From: Phenylobacterium sp.
GTDB taxonomy: Bacteria; Pseudomonadota; Alphaproteobacteria; Caulobacterales; Caulobacteraceae
NCBI GenBank assembly: GCA_040391295.1
Contig: JBEBYB010000006.1
Span: forward strand, 16-64,015
Reading direction: 5' to 3'
DNA: 64,000 nucleotides
Part shown: positions 34,994 through 64,000 of the stretch, one piece after another
Position numbering within the stretch: the first letter of the stretch is position 1
How the letters are laid out: every line of letters starts with the position of its first letter
Translations under genes and position numbers: made by a program
The notes under the pieces: model-generated
What the model saw: the letters and a program-made list of their open reading frames with translations, nothing else
Database searches by the model: none
Told to the model about the DNA's origin: nothing

Positions 34994-36178
34994 TCAAAGG
35001 CCCAACACCAGGCGGGCGATGATGTCCCGCTGGATCTCGTTCGAGCCGCCATAGATCGTGGCGGCTCGGTCGTTCAGGTATCGCGGCATGGCCGTCAAAG
35101 CGCCTGCCGGTCCTATGGGCGGAACGTTCGAACCTGGCTGCCGGGCGTCGGGTTGGTCGGCCCCGCCGTAGAATCCCGCCGTTTCCAGCGCCAGTTCATC
35201 GACCATCTGCAGGGCCTCGGCCCCCTGCGCCTTCAGCATCGAGGACGCAGGTCCAGGATTGGCCCCGGACGCCAGGGCGGCCAGGGTTCGCTGCTCGGCG
35301 ATTTCGATGGCGGTCACCGCGATCTCCGCCGCCATCAGCTTGGCGCGGAAGGCCGCCTCGGTCAGGAGCCCAGCCTCCCAGGCTAGGTCGCGCACCCGTT
35401 CAAGCATGACCTGGAGCCCCGGCGCCGAACTGCCGCCCCGCTCGAACTCCAGCAAGTATTTGGCGACCGTCCAGCCCTTGTTCTCTTCGCCGACCCGGCC
35501 GGAGACCGGGACCCGAACATCTTCGAAGAACACTTCGTTGACCTCGTGCTCGCCGGCCAGGGTGATGATCGGGCGAACACGAATGCCCGGCGTGGACATG
35601 TCCAGCAGCAAGAAGGTGATCCCCGCCTGCGGTTTGCCGGTGGTGTCGGTCCGGACCAGGCAGAACATGCGGTTGGCCCAATGGGCGTGGGTGGTCCACA
35701 GCTTGGAGCCCGACAGCACGTAGTCGTCGCCGTCGCGCACCGCCCGCAGCCCGAGCGCCGCCAGGTCCGAGCCGGCCTGAGGCTCCGAATAGCCCTGGCA
35801 CCAATAGTCCTCGCCCGAGAGGATCCGTGGCAGGTAGTGCGCCTTCTGCTCGGGCGTGCCGAAGCCCATGATCACCGGTCCGACCATCCGCAGGCCCATG
35901 GGCGCGAGGCCCGGCGCCCCGGCCCGCGCGCACTCGGCGGCGAAGATATGCCGCTGCATCACATCCCAGCCTGGCCCGCCGTATTCGACGGGCCAACTGG
36001 GCGCGGCCCAACCCCTGGCATGCAGGATCTTCTGCCAGGGCAGGCTGTGGCGCTTGTCGGTGAAGACGCTGGTCGCCCGGCGCCCGACCTCACGCAGTTC
36101 CGGGGTCAGCGAGGCGTCGAGGAAGGCGCGCACCTCGTCGCGAAACGCCAACTCCTCATTTGTGAGATCGAGGTTCAC
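34994..36178 (-). CDS. acyl-CoA dehydrogenase
   Basis: 394 aa. ACAD fold motifs (YWCQGYSEPQAGSDLA, GSKLWTT, IYGGSNEIQRDI). 13-bp gap to the ligase gene. Confidence 0.9.
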   Translation of the reverse strand: MNLDLTNEELAFRDEVRAFLDASLTPELREVGRRATSVFTDKRHSLPWQKILHARGWAAPSWPVEYGGPGWDVMQRHIFAAECARAGAPGLAPMGLRMVGPVIMGFGTPEQKAHYLPRILSGEDYWCQGYSEPQAGSDLAALGLRAVRDGDDYVLSGSKLWTTHAHWANRMFCLVRTDTTGKPQAGITFLLLDMSTPGIRVRPIITLAGEHEVNEVFFEDVRVPVSGRVGEENKGWTVAKYLLEFERGGSSAPGLQVMLERVRDLAWEAGLLTEAAFRAKLMAAEIAVTAIEIAEQRTLAALASGANPGPASSMLKAQGAEALQMVDELALETAGFYGGADQPDARQPGSNVPPIGPAGALTAMPRYLNDRAATIYGGSNEIQRDIIARLVLGL

Positions 36179-56056: not shown

Positions 56057-57451
56057 TTACGCGTCCTCTTCTTCCAACGGCCGGGCGCCCGAGAGGCCCA
56101 GCGACTTGAGTTTGCGGTGCAGCGCCGAACGCTCCATGCCGATGAAGGCCGCCGTCCGCGAGATATTGCCCGAGAAGCGCAGCATCTGAGCGTTCAGGTA
56201 CTCGCGCTCGAACACCTCGCGCGCCTCGCGCAGCGGCAGGGCGATGATCTTCTCCGCGCCCAGGTTCGAGGGTTGGTCGGAGATCGCGGCGTCGCCCGGC
56301 AGCATGTCGGCGGTGATCGCCTCGCTGGGATCGCCGGCCGCCAGGATCAGCATTCGCTCCACATTGTTGCGAAGCTGGCTGAGATTACCCGGCCAGGCGC
56401 GAACCTGCAGCGTCGCCAAGGCGTCGTCGGCCAGCCGGCGGCGCGACATGCCGGTCGCCTCGCAAATCCGGGTGATGAAGTACTCGATTAGCTCTGGGAT
56501 ATCCTCGCGGCGCTCGGCTAGGCCCGGGACGCTCACCGGCACCACGTTCAGGCGGTGGAACAGATCCTCGCGGAAGCGGCCGGCGGTGATCTCCTCACGC
56601 AGGTCGCGGCAGGTGGACGAGACCACCCGGACATCGACCTGGACGTCGGCGTCGCCGCCCACCCGCCGGAAGCGTTGCTCGACCAGGACCCGCAGGATGC
56701 GGCTCTGGGTTTCACGCGGCATGTCGGCAACTTCGTCCAGATAGAGCGTGCCGCCGTGGGCGCGCTCGAACACGCCGATCTTGGCCGGCCGGCCGCCCTC
56801 AAGCTCTTCGCCGAACAGTTCGGAGTCGACCCGTTCGGGCGTCATGCCCGCGGCGCTGATCGCCACGAACTCGTTGCGGGCGCGCGGACTAGCGCCATGG
56901 ATCAACCGCGCCACCGTCTCCTTGCCCGATCCGGGAGGCCCTGCGATCAGCACCCGGCTGTTGGCCGAGGCCAGCTTGCCGATCAGGCCGCGCAGTTGCT
57001 GGGTGACGACCGACTTGCCGATCAGGCCGTCCGGCTGGATCGTCTGAGCCCGCAGCCGCCGGTTCTCGCGCTTCAGGTTGCTGGTCTCCAGCGCCCGCTC
57101 GACGCAAAGCAACAGCCGGTCGGATTTGAACGGCTTTTCGAGAAACTCATAGGCGCCGCGCTTGATGGCGCTGACGGCGGTTTCGATATTGCCGTGGCCC
57201 GAAATCATGATCACCGGAATGTCGGCGTCGAGTTCCTTGACCAAGTCAAGCAACTCCAAACCGTCCATCCCACCGCCCTGCATCCAGATATCGAGGATCA
57301 GCAGGGCCGGTTTACGCGACTTCACGGCCGCCAAGGCGCTTTCGGAGTCGTTCGCCGTGCGCACCGCATAGCCTTCGTCCGACAGGATGCCGGCCACCAA
57401 CTCGCGGATATCAGCCTCGTCGTCGACCACAAGAACGTCAGCCGCCATCAT
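56057..57451 (-). CDS. ntrX: response regulator NtrX (REC-AAA+-HTH)
   Basis: 464 aa. Receiver domain, Walker A GPPGSGKE and a C-terminal Fis-type HTH. No GAFTGA loop. Confidence 0.92.
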   Translation of the reverse strand: MMAADVLVVDDEADIRELVAGILSDEGYAVRTANDSESALAAVKSRKPALLILDIWMQGGGMDGLELLDLVKELDADIPVIMISGHGNIETAVSAIKRGAYEFLEKPFKSDRLLLCVERALETSNLKRENRRLRAQTIQPDGLIGKSVVTQQLRGLIGKLASANSRVLIAGPPGSGKETVARLIHGASPRARNEFVAISAAGMTPERVDSELFGEELEGGRPAKIGVFERAHGGTLYLDEVADMPRETQSRILRVLVEQRFRRVGGDADVQVDVRVVSSTCRDLREEITAGRFREDLFHRLNVVPVSVPGLAERREDIPELIEYFITRICEATGMSRRRLADDALATLQVRAWPGNLSQLRNNVERMLILAAGDPSEAITADMLPGDAAISDQPSNLGAEKIIALPLREAREVFEREYLNAQMLRFSGNISRTAAFIGMERSALHRKLKSLGLSGARPLEEEDA

Positions 57452-59688
57452 ATCACTCCTGCGTCTTGAGCCGCGCCAGGCGCCAGCTCGGTGTCGGGCA
57501 AGGCTTTCGCCTTGTCCGCCGTCGGTAGTTTCAAGATCGCCCGAGCGCCCTGCCCCTGAACCGCATCGGTCAGAATCAGTTCGCCCCCATGATCTTCGAG
57601 GATACGTTTCACGATGGCCAAACCCAGCCCCGTGCCTTTTTCCCGGGTGGTCACATAGGGCTCGGTCAGGCGATCGCGGTCCTTATCGGGCAAGCCCACC
57701 CCGTTGTCCTCGACCTCGATCTGCACGCCCTGTTCGTCGCAGATCAGACGCGTGACGATCCTGCCCTTCGGCTTGGGCGAGACCGCGGTCCGGGCCGAGA
57801 CCGCCTCGGCGGCGTTCTTCAGCACATTGGTCAGGGCCTGGGTCAGCATGCGGCCGTCGGCGATCACGGTCGCTTCCGGCACCGGATCGGCCAGTTCGAC
57901 AGAGATGCCGGGACTCGCCACGCGCTGGGCGAACACGGCGGCCCGGACCAGCTCAGCGCCGTCCTGCGCGGCGAACTTGGGCGCGGGCATACGGGCGAAG
58001 GACGAGAACTCGTCCACCATCCGGCCGATCCCGTCGACCTGCCGCACGATGGTGTCCGTGCAACGATCGAAGATTTCCAGGTCTTCATCCGCCACGTCCT
58101 TGCGGAACTTGCGCCGCAGACGCTCGGCCGACAGCTGGATGGGCGTCAGCGGGTTCTTGATCTCATGGGCGATCCGCCGCGCCACGTCGCGCCAGGCGGC
58201 GTTCCGCTGGGCCGAGACCAGGCGGGTGATGTCGTCGAAGGTCAGCACCAACCCGCCTTCAGAGCGGCTGGCCCGGACCCGCAGCCGATGCGTCTCGCGA
58301 GAGCGGACGACGTCCACTTCCTCCTCGGCCTCACCGGCGATATCGCCATGCTCGGCGATGATCACCAGTTCAGGCGCAACCTCCGAGAGCTTGCGGCCAT
58401 GAACCTGGCCAGAGACCAGGCCCAACAACGCGGCGGCCTGGCGATTGATCGCCGAGACCCGGCCGTCGGCGTCCAGGCCGATAACCCCGGCCGACACTTC
58501 CGACAGCACCGTCTCGATAAACTGCCGACGCTCCTCGGCCTCGTCGCCGGCCCGCTTCAACGCTTCTTGTTGAGCCTGAAGATCGTGCGTCATACTATTG
58601 AAAGCACGGGACAAGACCGCCAATTCCTCGGGGTCACGATCCGCGTCGACCCTGACGTTCAAGTCTCCGCTCGCAACACGCCCGGCGGCGACCACCAGAC
58701 GCCCGACCGGCGCCGAAATAGCGCTGGCCGCGCCCATGCCGAGCCATACCGCGCCGACCAGAACCAGCATGGCGGTTTCCATGTAGGAAAGCGCAAAAAC
58801 GCGTTGAATTCGTTGTCGACTTTCGGCCGCCTCGCGATAGGCGGTGACCGAGTTCGAAGCGTCTTGAAGCTGGCTGACGATCCCCTGCTGGACCGGTCGG
58901 GTGATATAGAGATAGGCGTCCGGATAGGCCGACAGCTTGTAGAGCGCCCGCGTCAGGTCGGTGGAGACATAGATCACCGCGTCCTCGTCCGCGGCCGCGA
59001 AACTCGCCAGCGGCGGCGCCAGGAATTTCGGCGCATCGACCGCCTCGGCCCGCGCCAGAATGCGACCCTCGCGGTCGATCAGATAGGCGGCCGGAAAGGC
59101 GTGATAGGAGGCCTGTAAGCCCAGGAAGTGACCGAAGGTGACGGGACTGGCCTGCAGCGCCGGCGCCGCACGGTTCAGATCCTGCGCCATCAGGAACACG
59201 TGCTCTTCAACGAACCGCGTCTGGTCCTCGACATAGGAGCGCATCACCGTCGCGGCGTTCTCCACCACCGTCTGCACCCGCTCGGAGAACCAGTTCTCGA
59301 CGCCTCGATTGACCAGCACCGTATAGAACAGCGCCACGACCATCGCGGGCGCGACCGCCGCCAGGGCGAACAGGGTCACGAATCGAAGATGGAGCCGCGC
59401 CGCCGGATCGCTCGAGCGCGCCTTCAGCATCCCCATGATCCGGAAGCCGACCTGGGCGGCCAGCGCCAGGATCAGCACCAGATTGAACGCCAGAATCGCC
59501 AGGATATTCTTGGAGGCCGGGGCCAGGGGGCCGGTCTCGGGCGGCGAGGCCGCCAGCGAAATCGCCACCGCCGTCAGCAGCGCAGCCAGCGCATATCCGC
59601 CGCCGAGCACATAGCGCGACTGCAACGCCCGCCATATCCGCGCGGCGGGCTCCACTTCAGTTCCGCCATCGTGAACTTGGGACGCCAT
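57448..59688 (-). CDS. ntrY: sensor histidine kinase NtrY
   Basis: 746 aa. Multiple N-terminal TM helices, HAMP, PAS, H-box [12 protein letters not shown] and an HATPase domain. 4-nt overlap with ntrX. Confidence 0.92.
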   Translation of the reverse strand: MASQVHDGGTEVEPAARIWRALQSRYVLGGGYALAALLTAVAISLAASPPETGPLAPASKNILAILAFNLVLILALAAQVGFRIMGMLKARSSDPAARLHLRFVTLFALAAVAPAMVVALFYTVLVNRGVENWFSERVQTVVENAATVMRSYVEDQTRFVEEHVFLMAQDLNRAAPALQASPVTFGHFLGLQASYHAFPAAYLIDREGRILARAEAVDAPKFLAPPLASFAAADEDAVIYVSTDLTRALYKLSAYPDAYLYITRPVQQGIVSQLQDASNSVTAYREAAESRQRIQRVFALSYMETAMLVLVGAVWLGMGAASAISAPVGRLVVAAGRVASGDLNVRVDADRDPEELAVLSRAFNSMTHDLQAQQEALKRAGDEAEERRQFIETVLSEVSAGVIGLDADGRVSAINRQAAALLGLVSGQVHGRKLSEVAPELVIIAEHGDIAGEAEEEVDVVRSRETHRLRVRASRSEGGLVLTFDDITRLVSAQRNAAWRDVARRIAHEIKNPLTPIQLSAERLRRKFRKDVADEDLEIFDRCTDTIVRQVDGIGRMVDEFSSFARMPAPKFAAQDGAELVRAAVFAQRVASPGISVELADPVPEATVIADGRMLTQALTNVLKNAAEAVSARTAVSPKPKGRIVTRLICDEQGVQIEVEDNGVGLPDKDRDRLTEPYVTTREKGTGLGLAIVKRILEDHGGELILTDAVQGQGARAILKLPTADKAKALPDTELAPGAAQDAGVI

Positions 59689-59766
59689 GATCGGGTGACC
59701 CTAGCGAAAACCGTGACCAGAATTCAACAGAGATGTGGCGCAGAAGCGTCAGTGAAACCAGATGTG

Positions 59767-59901
59767 ATGACAAGCCGGTTTTGGCGCGCTATCTATGAGG
59801 GGATGATCCCCTCGGCCAGCCAATATTCGTTTTGGTATTTTAGCTATTCCGATGCCGCTGGCGGAGGAAGGGGATCGCACGACAGGACCGTCCTGTCGTA
59901 G
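59767..59901 (+). CDS. candidate aromatic-amino-acid leader peptide (44 aa; alternative in-frame start ATG 59803 gives 32 aa)
   Basis: MTSRFWRAIYEGMIPSASQYSFWYFSYSDAAGGGRGSHDRTVLS. Codons 59824-59847 read TAT TCG TTT TGG TAT TTT AGC TAT. In the track it is buried in a 257-aa shadow ORF. Confidence 0.5.
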   Translation: MTSRFWRAIYEGMIPSASQYSFWYFSYSDAAGGGRGSHDRTVLS

Positions 59902-59942
59902 TCCGAGACCCAACAGCCGCCAGTCACCTGGCGGCTTTTTTT
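59797..59942 (+). promoter_or_regulatory. candidate transcription attenuator (alternative antiterminator/terminator structures) of the DAHP synthase gene
   Basis: CTGGCGG occurs at 59858-59864 and again at 59928-59934, and both copies are complementary to CCGCCAG at 59917-59923. GCCAGC 59815-59820 is complementary to GCTGGC 59857-59862. Local hairpins at 59797-59813 and 59879-59899. Confidence 0.55.
59915..59942 (+). terminator. intrinsic terminator 35 nt upstream of the aroG-type start codon
   Basis: Stem AGCCGCCAG (59915-59923) / CTGGCGGCT (59928-59936), loop TCAC, followed by seven consecutive T (59936-59942). Confidence 0.85.
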
Positions 59943-59977
59943 ATGCCGCCGCGTGACGCTTTTCCTGGAGCGCACCC

Positions 59978-61078
59978 GTGCCAGACCTAACCGACGACCT
60001 TCGCATCCTAGACATCAAGCCCCTCGACACGCCGGCCGAGGTGATGGCTTGCCTGCCGGCCGGCGCGACCGCTTCAGCGACCGTGGCCAGCGCCCGGCTC
60101 GCGATGCATGGCATCCTTCATGGCCAGGACGATCGCCTGATCGTCGTGATCGGCCCTTGTTCGATCCACGACCCCGTCGCGGCGATGGACTATGCGCGGC
60201 GCCTGGCCGCCCAGCGCGCCCGGTTCACCGGGACGCTCGAGATCGTCATGCGGGTCTATTTCGAGAAGCCCCGCACCACGGTCGGCTGGAAGGGCTTGAT
60301 CAATGACCCGCACCTGGACGGCACCTTCCGCATCGACGAGGGCCTGCCCCTGGCGCGCAAGCTGCTGATCGAGGTGGGCGAGCTTGGCCTGCCGGCCGCG
60401 GTGGAATTCCTGGACGTCATCACGCCGCAGTACATGGCCGACCTGGTCAGCTGGGGCGCGATCGGCGCGCGAACCACCGAGAGCCAGATCCACCGAGAGA
60501 TGGCGTCCGGCCTCTCCTGCCCGGTCGGTTTCAAGAACGGCACGGACGGGAACCTGCGCATCGCCGTCGACGCCGTCAAAGCCGCCAGCCAGCCGCACCA
60601 TTTCCTGGCGGTCGGCAAGGATGGCCGCGCCTCGATTGCGGCCACCCGAGGTAATGTCGACAGCCACGTCGTCCTGCGCGGCGGCAAGACCCCGAACTAT
60701 GACGCCGCCGGCGTCGCCGCAGCCTGCGCCGAACTCGCTTCCAGCGGGCTGCCGCAGAACCTGGTCATCGATGTCAGTCACGCCAACAGCCTCAAGAAGC
60801 CGGAGAACCAGCCGGCCGTCGCCCGTGACGTCGCCAGTCAGGTCGCGGCTGGCGACCAGCGCATCGTCGGAGTGATGATCGAAAGCCATCTGGTCGCCGG
60901 CCGCCAGGACCTCGTAGCCGGCCAAGCGCTGACCTACGGTCAGAGCATCACCGACGGCTGCATCGACTGGGACACCTCGGTCGAGGTGCTGGAGGAACTG
61001 GCCATGGCGGTCGAGGCTCGTCGACGAGCCAAAGTCGGCATCGCGACCACGACGACGGCTAAGATCGGCACCGTCTAG
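59978..61078 (+). CDS. aroG: 3-deoxy-7-phosphoheptulonate (DAHP) synthase, class I
   Basis: 366 aa, GTG start with GGAG at 59967-59970. Class I-alpha sequence (GPCSIHD, KPRTTVGWKGL, IGARTTESQ, VMIESH). The feedback specificity (F/Y/W) cannot be told from the sequence. Confidence 0.92.
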   Translation: MPDLTDDLRILDIKPLDTPAEVMACLPAGATASATVASARLAMHGILHGQDDRLIVVIGPCSIHDPVAAMDYARRLAAQRARFTGTLEIVMRVYFEKPRTTVGWKGLINDPHLDGTFRIDEGLPLARKLLIEVGELGLPAAVEFLDVITPQYMADLVSWGAIGARTTESQIHREMASGLSCPVGFKNGTDGNLRIAVDAVKAASQPHHFLAVGKDGRASIAATRGNVDSHVVLRGGKTPNYDAAGVAAACAELASSGLPQNLVIDVSHANSLKKPENQPAVARDVASQVAAGDQRIVGVMIESHLVAGRQDLVAGQALTYGQSITDGCIDWDTSVEVLEELAMAVEARRRAKVGIATTTTAKIGTV

Positions 61079-61091
61079 CTCCCCCCATAGT

Positions 61092-61203
61092 TCGTCATGG
61101 CCGACCTCTTGTGTCGGCCATCCATAGACACCAAGGTCGACGACTTGCCTGAGCGGTCCGCGTGTATGGATCACCGGGACAATAGCCCGGTGATGACGAG
61201 CTA
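61092..61203. repeat. ~112-bp palindromic repeat element with two internal 9-bp hairpins
   Basis: Termini TCGTCATGGC (61092-61101) and ATGACGAGCTA (61193-61203), which are inverted and shared with the copy at 53480-53517. Internal hairpins at 61097-61121 and 61170-61194. CCATAG direct repeat at 61085-61090 and 61122-61127. Confidence 0.6.
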
Positions 61204-61229
61204 GAATGTGTCAGGGCCGCTGCTCGAAC

Positions 61230-62660
61230 CTAGCGGCGGCCCCGGCTCATCTCGACCCCGAGGTCCTGGATCTTCTTGCGCAGGGTGTTGCGGTTGAGGC
61301 CCAGGATCTCGGCGGCGCGGACCTGATTGCCGCGGGTGGCCGTAAGGGTGAGCTGGATGAGAGGGCGCTCCACCTCCTCCAACACCCGATCATAGAGGCC
61401 GATCGGCGGTATCCCGTCGGGCTGCTCGGCGAAGTAGCCGCCCAGGTGGCGCTCGACCAGGGCGGCCAAGGTGACCGGCCCCTCCTGCCCGGGGATCACC
61501 GGCTGATGGTCGGCCAGTTCGCGCTCGACGATCCGGGCGCTGATCAGGTCCTCGGCATAGAGCGCGCAGATCCGGCGGATCAGGTTCTCCAACTCGCGCA
61601 CGTTGCCGGGCCAGGCGTGCAGCTTCAGGCGCTCCAGCGCCGCGGCGTCGATGGTCTTGGACGGCAGCCCCTCGCGGTTGGCGCGCAGCAGGAAGGCCCG
61701 CGCCAGGTCCGGAATGTCGTCGGTGCGGTCACGCAGCGGCGGCAGGCGCAGCGGCGCGACATTGAGGCGGAAGAACAGGTCCTCGCGGAACAGGCCCTGC
61801 TGAATCAAGGCCCGCAAATCGCGATTGGTCGCCGCGATGACCCGCACATTCGGCGGCCGGCCGGTCCGGGGATTGATCGACTGCTCCGATCCGTCGATCA
61901 CCCGCAGCAGGCGGGTCTGGGCGTCCAGCGGCATGTCGCCGATTTCGTCCAGAAACAGAGTGCCGCCGTCGGCGTCCACCAACTTGCCGTAGTCGCCGTC
62001 GTCGCGGCCGAACAGTTCGGCCTCGACCCGTTCGCGTGGCACCGCGGCCAGGTTGATCACCACGAACTTGCCGTCCTTGCGACGGCCCATGTCGTGCAGG
62101 GCGCGCGCGACCAACTCCTTGCCGGTTCCGCTCTCCCCCAGGATCAGCACCGTCAGGTCCGCGCCGACCAGCCGGGCGATCGTGCGATAGACGTCCTGCA
62201 TCGGCCCCGAGCGGCCGATCAGCGGCAAGCGTTCGTCGCGCACCGCGCGAGCCTGGGCCTTCGAGGCCTCGGCGTCGGCCGGCCGCGACAGGGCCCGGCG
62301 CGCAGCGGCGGTCATGTCGTCCAGATCGAAGGGCTTGGAGATGTATTCGAAGGCGCCGACCTCGGCGGCGCTGACCGCCGTCAGCAAGGTGTTCTGCGCG
62401 CTCATCACGATGACCGGCAGCTTGGGCCGCTCCTTACGGATGCGCGGCAGCACGTCGAACACGTTTTCGTCGGGCATCACCACGTCGGTGACGACCAGAT
62501 CGCCCTCCCCGTCCGACACCCATTTCAGGAGGGTGGTGGCGTTGCCGGTGGCGCGGACCTGGTAGCCCAGCCGGGTGAAGGCCTGGCTCAACACCAGCCG
62601 GATCGAGGCGTCGTCATCGGCGATCAGGATTTTCTTGCTGGCGTTGGCGGTAGCATTCAT
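61230..62660 (-). CDS. ntrC: response regulator NtrC (REC-AAA+-HTH), GAFTGA-less
   Basis: 476 aa. Receiver domain, Walker A GESGTGKE and a C-terminal Fis HTH ([22 protein letters not shown]). The loop between ELFG and GGTLFLDE is short and lacks GAFTGA. Confidence 0.93.
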
Positions 62661-63778
62661 GCCGGCATATCCTCTTCAGACGCGATCGGCAGCAGCACGC
62701 GGAAGGTGGTGCGGCCAGGTTCAGATTCGAAATCGATCAGGCCGCCGTGGCCGGCCACGAGCTTGGCCACCAGCGCCAGGCCAAGACCGGCCCCATGACT
62801 CTTGGTGCTGACAAACGGCTGAAACAGGCTTTCGCGAATGTGGGCCGGAACCCCGGGACCATTATCCTGGACTCTGATCTCCAGCGGCGCGCCCCGCAGG
62901 ACTTGCCCCTTGGCGGCGCGGACCTTCACCCCGTGGCGATAGGCGGTGCGAACCGTGATCGCCCCCCGGCCGTCGCCGCGTGAATGAGCCGCCTCGGCGG
63001 CGTTCTTCACCAGATTCAGGAAGATCTGGATCAATTGATCCTCGTCCCCCAGCGCCGGCGGCAGAGAAGGGTCGTAATGGTCGCTGAGTTGCAGGCCGTC
63101 GGCGACGCCGTTGGCCGCCAAGGCCTTCACCCGGTCGAGGACCAAGTGGATGTTGACCGGCCGGCAATCGGGCGGCGCGTCGTCGGAGAAGGCCTCCATC
63201 CGGTCCACCAGGCGGCGGACGCGGTCGGTCTCGTCGACGATCAACTGAGCCAGCGGCGCGTCTTCAGCCCCGGCGCTCGACTTCAGCAACTGGGCGGCGC
63301 CGCGAATCCCGGCCAGCGGGTTCTTGATCTCGTGAGCCAGCATATGGCCCAGGCCGACGATGGTCCGCAGGCCGGCCTGCTCGGCGCCGGTCCGCTCGCC
63401 GCCCAGCGCGCGCCCCTTGACGTGAAGCGTGAGCAGGATCGAACCGTCGCCCAACGGAGCGGCCGCGCCGTCCGCCTCGAACGAGGGGTGACCAAACAGG
63501 CTGATCTCCACGCCGCGCTCGCGGACCCTGACGCCTTCTTCCACGGCGCGGTCCAGCAAGGACACAAGGGCCGAGCCCGGCGGCAGGGCGGCGGCGAACC
63601 GCCCGCGCATCAGCAGGCCGAGCCCCTGGCCGAACAGGGCTTCGGCCGCCTCATTGACCGCCACCAGCGCCCCGCTCGGATCAACCACCAACGCCGGTTC
63701 CGGCGAGAGGTCGAAGGCCGCGGCCTTCAGCGCCTCGAGTATGGCGTCCGACGGAAGCGCGCGGTTCTGGTTGTTCAT
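62657..63778 (-). CDS. ntrB: sensor histidine kinase NtrB
   Basis: Start at ATG 63778 ([11 protein letters not shown]...). PAS domain, H-box [12 protein letters not shown] and an HATPase domain. 4-nt overlap with ntrC. Confidence 0.92.
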
Positions 63779-64000
63779 GCCGCCAGCTTCGCATCGGGAT
63801 TGCGCCACAGCGCCGTCAAGCCGGCCTCGACCTCGCCGGCATCGTCCAGGCGGCACAGGGCCGATCGGGCGGCGCGCCGGGCCTGCGCGTCGCCAGGCCA
63901 GGGGGCGTTCTCGACATAGGCCGCCAGATGCTTGCGGAAGATGCGCAGGCCGAGGCGGTCGCCGTAGAACTTCAGGCTGTCGCGGAAATGGTCCAGAGCG
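63775..64000 (-). CDS. dusB: tRNA-dihydrouridine synthase DusB (NifR3), 3' end only (runs off window)
   Basis: Hand translation gives ...LDHFRDSLKFYGDRLGLRIFRKHLAAYVENAP...[11 protein letters not shown]. The stop overlaps the ntrB ATG (ATGA). Position upstream of ntrBC is conserved in Alphaproteobacteria. Confidence 0.78.
   Translation of the reverse strand, partial: ALDHFRDSLKFYGDRLGLRIFRKHLAAYVENAPWPGDAQARRAARSALCRLDDAGEVEAGLTALWRNPDAKLAA

Follow-up and report, generated by a model that had tools for sequence, protein, structure and literature searches.

A candidate ribosome-mediated attenuator with an aromatic-codon leader peptide upstream of aroG-type genes in proteobacteria

We analysed a short leader element in a 64,000-nucleotide (nt) stretch of DNA from Phenylobacterium sp. 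(Caulobacteraceae; contig JBEBYB010000006.1), referred to below as the window. The element lies in the 289-bp gap between two divergent genes, one for an NtrY-like sensor kinase and the other for a class I (AroF/G/H-type) DAHP synthase, here called aroG. The DAHP synthase matched PF00793 (E 7e-93) and TIGR00034 (aroFGH, 519 bits), and it is 74-95% identical to Phenylobacterium proteins. Within the gap, a mini open reading frame (ORF) with a run of codons for Phe, Trp and Tyr is followed by an intrinsic terminator, and the strands that can pair with one another are numbered here as segments 1 to 4 (Table 1). A first-pass annotation had read this arrangement as a ribosome-mediated attenuator. 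The conserved ORF and codon run, the covariation of the 2:3 pairing and of the terminator, the codon-to-segment spacing and the preference for TTT all back this reading, and very probably the DAHP synthase gene is controlled by a ribosome-mediated transcription attenuator of the classical four-segment type.

Table 1. Features of the leader-aroG locus, with positions counted from the first letter of the window
Feature	Position	Strand	Remarks
ntrY-like sensor kinase gene	57448-59688	minus	
Putative -35 box, ATGACA	59767-59772	+	GATGACA/GGTGACA kept in Caulobacteraceae and Bradyrhizobium/Mesorhizobium
Putative -10 box, CTATCT / TATCTA	59789-59795	+	Ends 7-8 nt before ATG 59803
Leader mini-ORF, 32 codons plus TAG, product MIPSASQYSFWYFSYSDAAGGGRGSHDRTVLS	59803-59901	+	ATG invariant in 11 Caulobacteraceae
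Segment 1, CCUC-G-GCCAGC (anti-antiterminator)	59810-59820	+	Present in the minimum free energy (MFE) fold of the free leader
Regulatory codon run, TAT TCG TTT TGG TAT TTT AGC TAT (Y S F W Y F S Y)	59824-59847	+	
Segment 2, G-CUGGCGG-AGG; core 59858-59864 copies the terminator 3' arm	59857-59867	+	Pairs with segment 1 or 3
Apical stem of the antiterminator: GGG/CCC base and perfect hairpin CGACAGGAC-c-GUCCUGUCG (59880-59898)	59870-59911	+	Folds
Segment 3, terminator 5' arm AGCCGCCAG	59915-59923	+	Terminator scan, pairing counts
Segment 4, terminator 3' arm CUGGCGGCU (59928-59936) and U7 tract (59936-59942)	59928-59942	+	
Shine-Dalgarno GGAG of the DAHP synthase gene	59967-59970	+	Close relatives keep GGAGCGCAC
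Regulated gene: class I (AroF/G/H-type) DAHP synthase, 366 aa, GTG start	59978-61078	+	PF00793, TIGR00034

The aromatic codons at 59824-59847 and the TAG stop at 59899-59901 had already been pointed out and were confirmed, as were all other positions given in the first-pass annotation. Phe, Trp and Tyr take up six of the eight codons of the run, the GC content of which is 30%, compared with 67% for the window. To see the element in its relatives, we used 80 loci among the matches listed, from alpha-, beta- and gamma-proteobacteria, that encode synthases related to it at 59-72% identity, and ten further Caulobacteraceae loci, Phenylobacterium included (71-93% identity). When 400 nt upstream of the gene were examined in the 80 loci, the best stretch of eight codons held six to eight aromatic codons at most of them, against two to five on the reverse strand, and these stretches were found about 150-260 nt before the gene. 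Each aromatic run lies inside a short ORF, 17-33 codons from ATG to stop, with an intrinsic terminator after it, and the mini-ORF of the window is homologous to these ORFs of 17-33 amino acids (aa). The same layout precedes aroG-type genes at about 55 of the 90 loci examined, in three proteobacterial classes. The leader peptides include MITVATSYFWYFSYDSSLAAGGSRSI (Bradyrhizobium), MSAKFYFYFFWHLRPLADREGC (Paraburkholderia), MNANRSFYFWYYGFPMPLAEEGVRSP (Xanthomonas) and MTRSAATYSFWYFSYPMLAEAGTRLN (Devosia). The element had first been considered in the setting of the Alphaproteobacteria; it is no peculiarity of that class, since it also occurs in beta- and gamma-proteobacteria.

In the Caulobacteraceae the leader was present at all ten further loci, with or without ntrY/ntrC as neighbours. 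Because it is kept whether or not the gene lies between ntrY and ntrC, its link is to the DAHP synthase gene and not to the neighbourhood. A covariance model (R1) was built from 49 leaders, with the window and all Caulobacteraceae left out. This model matched the window at 59803-59941 over its entire length (positions 1-138 of 138; 87 bits, E 4.3e-20), and the match begins precisely at the leader ATG. The ten Caulobacteraceae loci scored 62-92 bits. The model also recovered the leader of an Undibacterium locus (L026), 470 nt upstream of the gene, and two leaders truncated by contig ends (L013 and L061). A second match in the window (35044-35066, 16.7 bits, GAGCCGCCATAGATCGTGGCGGCTC) is a bare CCGCC/GGCGG hairpin. 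We rejected it as probably due to chance, because it has no T-run and apparently lies inside coding sequence.

In the Undibacterium locus (L026, 894-1500), the leader MKQVVFFFFFYFSYSRPKAVGRR has five consecutive Phe codons and no Trp codon. Between it and aroG are about 470 nt, in which a repeat of about 40 nt (..tctctgtg/atgtct.tgtg.tgagattttggtttt..) occurs twice, and a weak minus-strand match to model R1 (999-1144, 35 bits) shares the terminator. A locus from a metagenome-assembled genome labelled Chloroflexota (L063, 1113-1186 and 1302-1468) has a similar leader, MANPVRCFSYFWFSYFACEGRGLPARGFETTSE, just after a tRNA gene, with a different terminator stem (GGCGCGGGGC/GCCCCGCGCU). Either the element belongs here to a divergent lineage, or the contig was mis-binned.

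Pairing and codon usage were counted in an alignment of 62 leaders running from the ATG to the U-tract. The intrinsic terminator proposed at 59915-59942 was the sole site called by a terminator scan of 1 kb. It consists of AGCCGCCAG (59915-59923), the loop TCAC, CTGGCGGCT (59928-59936) and T7 to 59942, with a GC-rich stem of 9 bp. Its arms are paired in 95.7% of the cells of the alignment, and four of the nine pairs change on both sides, with 44 compensatory cells. None of 500 shuffles scored as high, and sliding the partner reduced pairing to 17-59%.

The heptamer CTGGCGG (59858-59864), a copy of the terminator 3' arm, can pair with CCGCCAG (59917-59923) as the 3' strand of an antiterminator (7 bp in the window), and the first-pass annotation had suggested that this copy precludes the terminator. 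The alignment bears out the pairing. The two strands are paired in 91.5% of cells, compared with 16-58% in the slid controls, and three pairs show compensatory changes (UA to CG in seven sequences, CG to GC or AU in three, GC to AU in one, L047). In lineages with the terminator arm CCGCCGG, the upstream copy is CCGGCGG. L047 has the arm CCGCU, and AGCGG appears in both its terminator 3' arm and its upstream copy. Compared with the window, a double change is seen in the Caulobacteraceae loci L084 and L085, whose upstream copy GCGGCGG faces CCGCCGC. RNAalifold, applied to the region from segment 2 to segment 3 of the 11 Caulobacteraceae alone, predicts the same 2:3 helix, and the MFE fold of the RNA made before segment 4 closes with this helix in 60 of the 62 leaders. 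Both the conservation of the mini-ORF and the compensatory changes in the 2:3 and 3:4 pairings upstream of aroG relatives, which had been proposed as a check, were thus found.

The top of the antiterminator is formed by a conserved hairpin (59880-59898) that the first-pass annotation had not described. It ends at the stop codon of the mini-ORF, and relatives keep it with other sequences (GACAG/CUGUC, GUGAC/GUCAU, GUGACC/GGUCAU and UGGCU/AGCCA). Segment 1, on the other side of the codon run, and segment 2 (59810-59820 with 59857-59867) form 10 bp around one G.G mismatch; the duplex has an energy of -17.5 kcal/mol (z = -2.45 against shuffles). The core of this pairing is GCCAGC (59815-59820), complementary to GCUGGC (59857-59862), which had been proposed to sequester the antiterminator strand. 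In Burkholderia (UCCGCCA/UGGCGGA), Bradyrhizobium and L084, codons 2-6 hold a CCGCC(A)-like segment that pairs likewise; L084 has CGCCGCC/GGCGGCG at this place.

The choice of codons in the leader differs from that of the surrounding genes. TTT had been judged by eye to be the minor Phe codon nearby, and this holds: the 35 window ORFs with a high G+C content at third codon positions use 54 TTT and 510 TTC codons. In the leaders, TTT makes up 77% of Phe codons, compared with 12% in the adjacent aroG (Fisher p 2e-56, uncorrected for kinship), and TAT makes up 57% of Tyr codons, compared with 33% in aroG. Aromatic residues account for 27% of leader codons and for 4.5% of those of aroG. Phe, Tyr and Trp are all present in 54 of the 62 leaders. 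The eight without Trp are five of the Oxalobacteraceae type (FFTAYFYF, FYFYFHF and similar) and three from metagenome bins labelled Paucimonas, Burkholderiales and Proteobacteria (L001, L033 and L037). Between the last aromatic codon and segment 2 the spacing is tightly kept, at a median of 9 nt in the family and at 10 nt in the window. On most codons of the run, a stalled ribosome would cover segment 1 and leave segment 2 free. As for the stop codon, it is found a median of 20 nt beyond segment 2 in the family and 34 nt beyond it in the lineage of the window, where it stands at the foot of the apical hairpin.

These data also bear on a different explanation, namely that the ORF encodes a functional aromatic-rich micropeptide and that the hairpin is its own leaky terminator, with aroG co-transcribed and no amino acid sensed. 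The N-terminal half of the ORF, with the aromatic run, is indeed kept at the peptide level, and public databases in some cases list the ORF as a gene, invariably under the name 'hypothetical protein' (a 27-aa gene is called in L088). The C-terminal half is kept as RNA: leaders differ in the frame in which they read the GGCGG core (42, 17 and 3 leaders for the three frames), with L-A-E, G-G or A-V-E as the product, and the constraint therefore acts on the RNA and not on the peptide. Since, in addition, the duplicated arm and the terminator itself covary, there is selection for rare TTT codons, the length ranges from 17 to 33 aa and the linkage to the DAHP synthase gene is constant whatever the neighbouring genes, we consider the micropeptide highly improbable.

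The alternative pairings by themselves are silent on what tips the balance between them, and conserved purine-rich (GGAGGAAGGGG) and pyrimidine-rich tracts flank the switch. Both points could speak for a protein or small-molecule ligand that binds the leader RNA, in a TRAP-like or riboswitch-like manner, and sets the choice, the ORF being incidental. Against such a ligand stand the invariance of the ATG and the in-frame stop, the six-fold enrichment of aromatic codons and their fixed spacing to segment 2. There is no complex conserved fold beyond the hairpins, and no Rfam riboswitch matched the leader. A ligand of this kind is in our judgement very unlikely.

Two start codons, ATG 59767 and the in-frame ATG 59803, had been considered for the mini-ORF. 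The second is favoured, being invariant in the 11 Caulobacteraceae, and the first falls into a -35-like box. In the alignment of these 11 sequences, ATG 59767 lies within a conserved GATGACA box, which in one relative reads GTGACA and has no ATG; after it come 16-17 nt that vary freely, in their length as well as their sequence, before a conserved GCTAT box is reached. The part of the longer ORF upstream of 59803 has no coding-like conservation, and GATGACA and GCTAT behave as promoter boxes. We therefore rejected the longer ORF, and its additional TTT TGG and TAT codons are probably not translated. Rhizobiales share the pair of boxes, as (G/A)TGACA, about 16-17 nt and CTAT(A/C)(T/A), and Xanthomonadales and Comamonadaceae have a -10-like box in the form TGnTATCAA or CTACAT. 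From the end of the -10-like box to the leader ATG there are 8-10 nt in the alphaproteobacterial, Xanthomonadales and Comamonadaceae loci. Burkholderia and Oxalobacteraceae have TATAAA/TATAGT instead, at about 30-38 nt before the leader ATG.

From this pattern we infer a putative promoter made up of ATGACA (59767-59772), a 17-nt spacer and TATCTA (59790-59795). A consensus promoter scan did not call the box at 59789-59795; the rule of the scan demands T at hexamer position 6. Transcription would start at about 59801-59803, and because the putative -10 box ends just before ATG 59803, the geometry suggests that the mini-ORF is probably leaderless or nearly so. A perfect 7-bp inverted repeat, GAGGGGA-tga-TCCCCTC (59797-59813), surrounds the ATG, and the proposed transcription start would cut through it. 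As a hairpin it was considered as a part of the device and rejected, as it is not kept in the closest relatives. At the other end of the leader, the T-run is separated from GTG 59978 by 35 nt that contain the GGAG, as had been noted earlier, and relatives keep both the GGAG and the start column. The promoter scan found no promoter-like site in these 35 nt between the U-tract and the GTG.

The proposed mechanism is as follows. Transcription would begin at, or within about 2 nt of, ATG 59803, and the 32-codon mini-ORF would be translated as a leaderless message. With Phe-, Trp- and Tyr-tRNA well charged, the ribosome would pass the aromatic run and segment 2 (59857-59867) and, heading for TAG 59899, melt the 59870-59911 stem. 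Segment 3 (59915-59923) could then pair with segment 4 (59928-59936), and the polymerase would terminate in the U7 tract. If any one of the three charged tRNAs became scarce, the ribosome would be expected to stall within 59824-59847 and to cover segment 1. About 10 nt downstream, segment 2 would stay free and would capture segment 3 on its emergence, stacked on the 59870-59911 stem; this 2:3 helix would block the terminator, and the polymerase would read into aroG. With no ribosome loaded, segments 1 and 2 would pair and the terminator would form. As inferred from the layout of the leader, read-through would thus respond to the aromatic amino acids.

Constrained folds of the window from segment 2 to the U-tract gave -43.6 kcal/mol for the antiterminator and -43.3 kcal/mol for the terminator; the family median favours the terminator by 3.2 kcal/mol. 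Because the antiterminator and terminator states are thus almost equal in energy, which of them forms depends on the order of events, as in trp. Several observations weigh against the attenuator or parts of it. In every ribosome-masked equilibrium fold of the full window RNA the terminator is kept, and antitermination must therefore be pre-emptive and kinetic. The stop codon in the lineage of the window, at 34 nt past segment 2, is too distant for a terminating ribosome to cover that segment; termination must then rely on melting of the apical stem and on 1:2 re-formation, and probably the ribosome would melt the apical hairpin and the 1:2 pairing would re-form behind it. The 1:2 duplex reaches z < -1.5 in only 22 of the 62 leaders, and the same duplex z-scores gave a weak or absent partner, none of them convincing, in Oxalobacteraceae and Comamonadaceae. 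The pairing proposed earlier to sequester the antiterminator strand is thus clear in the window and some lineages and does not extend to all, and the anti-antiterminator is no universal feature of the family. The putative promoter and leaderless start are read from motif position. Finally, the antiterminator helix is short, variation is almost absent from its five central GGCGG/CCGCC pairs, and the leaders are related to one another. It follows that the covariation of this helix comes from the two outer pairs and from single sequences at one core pair, and that the shuffle controls, because of the kinship, overstate significance.

Rfam 15 has no family for the leader. A permissive scan of the region in the window gave sub-threshold matches, driven by the terminator, to isrD, Phe_leader and suhB. 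Phe_leader (RF01859), by score the Rfam model closest to the leader of the window, reached 18.5 bits (E 2.3) on the terminator only, and its gathering score is 55. At Rfam gathering thresholds, 16 related loci gave no match on the leader; the matches elsewhere were a tRNA and two glycine riboswitch aptamers. The latter form a tandem riboswitch downstream of aroG in Stenotrophomonas maltophilia (L031, 3474-3680, minus strand; 45.5 and 40.1 bits), unrelated to the leader. The scans of the window and of the 16 loci thus turned out as the first-pass annotation had expected, with no match or a generic terminator. Seven leader peptides matched no family of NCBIfam or Pfam, and an exact-sequence look-up of leader peptides returned 'hypothetical protein' names only. 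A search of the full-text literature, peptide strings included, found no description of a proteobacterial aroG leader; an earlier in silico prediction in older surveys is possible. For aroF/G/H, TyrR and TrpR are the only regulators taken up in a survey of proteobacterial regulons, and a RegPrecise-based survey gives His, Leu, Thr and Trp, along with Ile/Val and Phe, as the known amino-acid attenuator motifs. For the aroF/aroH leaders of enterics and Shewanella there are older hints, with no defined leader peptide.

As judged by these comparisons, the leader is a new, widespread, strongly conserved and unannotated family, with what appears to be a textbook mechanism that would bring three amino-acid signals to bear at the entry of the pathway. 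A broader proposition is that it constitutes an undescribed pan-proteobacterial RNA family in which a single, probably leaderless ORF reads the Phe-, Tyr- and Trp-tRNA pools, gates entry into the shikimate pathway and, across much of the alpha-, beta- and gamma-proteobacteria, replaces the TyrR/TrpR logic of E. coli; to this we give about even chances. The near-invariant CCGCC/GGCGG core, together with TTTAGCTA, hints at an ancient origin or at horizontal spread with aroG. Both the run (TTTAGCTA) and the core are also more conserved in their nucleotides than pairing alone would need, and the terminated RNA possibly has a second role. This would fit an attenuator whose terminated RNA or peptide acts mainly in trans, with cis control of aroG secondary. 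Attenuator-derived small RNAs and peptides with trans functions have precedent in alphaproteobacteria (PMC6614838, PMC7298713), and rnTrpL and peTrpL of Sinorhizobium are described trans-acting attenuator products. No target is indicated here, however, and the strict place of the leader upstream of aroG is explained by cis control. A mainly trans-acting product is therefore improbable, if somewhat less so than a micropeptide or a ligand, and it would supplement the attenuator reading rather than displace it.

The genomic setting of the leader-aroG unit varies within the Caulobacteraceae. In Phenylobacterium (window 57448-63856; L081, L082, L083, L084, L086 and L090), the unit is inserted between ntrC and ntrY and splits what appears to be an ntrB-ntrC and ntrY gene set; sometimes a beta-lactamase-family or short-chain dehydrogenase/reductase gene accompanies it. 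Other Caulobacteraceae (L085, L087, L088 and L089) have the same unit in unrelated gene contexts. Upstream of the putative leader promoter, the ntrY-aroG intergenic region contains a block (59711-59752, CCGTGACCAGAATTCAACAGAGATGTGGCGCAGAAGCGTCA) that is strongly conserved in the Phenylobacterium loci with ntrY adjoining. Relatives show an imperfect CTGTG...CAACAG symmetry in this block, which may be the promoter or operator of ntrY.

To our knowledge, the regulation of the first committed step of aromatic biosynthesis is poorly documented for most non-enteric proteobacteria. The leader would offer a concrete regulatory answer for many genera of soil, plant-associated and opportunistic bacteria: Bradyrhizobium, Mesorhizobium, Devosia, Phenylobacterium, Burkholderia/Paraburkholderia, Janthinobacterium, Variovorax, Xanthomonas and Stenotrophomonas. 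It is a candidate for a new Rfam family, which would give a name to dozens of 'hypothetical' mini-ORFs. It would be a rare case of three amino-acid signals integrated by one attenuator, and its ORF may be a naturally occurring leaderless one with a regulatory role. For strain engineering, deletion of the leader should deregulate DAHP synthase, and the leader itself could be a compact sensor of aromatic amino acids.

Control of DAHP synthase by an aromatic leader peptide is already known in Corynebacterium glutamicum, the sole described counterpart that we found. The aroR-aroF attenuator of this organism was predicted (PMC4046766) and shown experimentally by Neshat et al. 2014, as cited in PMC11802643. 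It has a leader peptide with Phe-Tyr-Phe and a read-through that rises on ribosome stalling under Phe limitation; Tyr availability is reported to be without effect. Like the element described here, aroR-aroF places an aromatic-codon leader before a DAHP synthase gene, with the same logic at the same step of the pathway. Unlike it, aroR-aroF is actinobacterial and has a short run without Trp, whereas the proteobacterial element has 5-8 aromatic codons, usually for all three amino acids, and a near-invariant CCGCC/GGCGG core. This comparison draws on the published description of aroR-aroF only.

Among the classical attenuators, the leaders of Escherichia coli pheA (pheL, RF01859) and pheST share with our element the runs of Phe codons, the intrinsic terminator and the alternative pairings. 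They differ in being gammaproteobacterial, in sensing Phe only and in regulating chorismate mutase/prephenate dehydratase or phenylalanyl-tRNA synthetase. E. coli trpL has the same four-segment design of 1:2, 2:3 and 3:4 pairings. Its terminator is at least as stable as its antiterminator, so that the choice is kinetic, and from its regulatory codons down to segment 2 there are about 10-15 nt. In contrast to the leader of the window, trpL has two Trp codons only and an ORF led by a Shine-Dalgarno sequence, where we propose a leaderless start; it acts on a terminal branch rather than on the common entry step, and TrpR repression is layered on top of it. TyrR and TrpR, acting on aroF, aroG and aroH of E. 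coli, likewise match DAHP synthase expression to the supply of aromatic amino acids. They do so as promoter-acting protein repressors of three isoenzyme genes, each responding to one amino acid, whereas in the window a single RNA device would read three tRNA pools for one gene.

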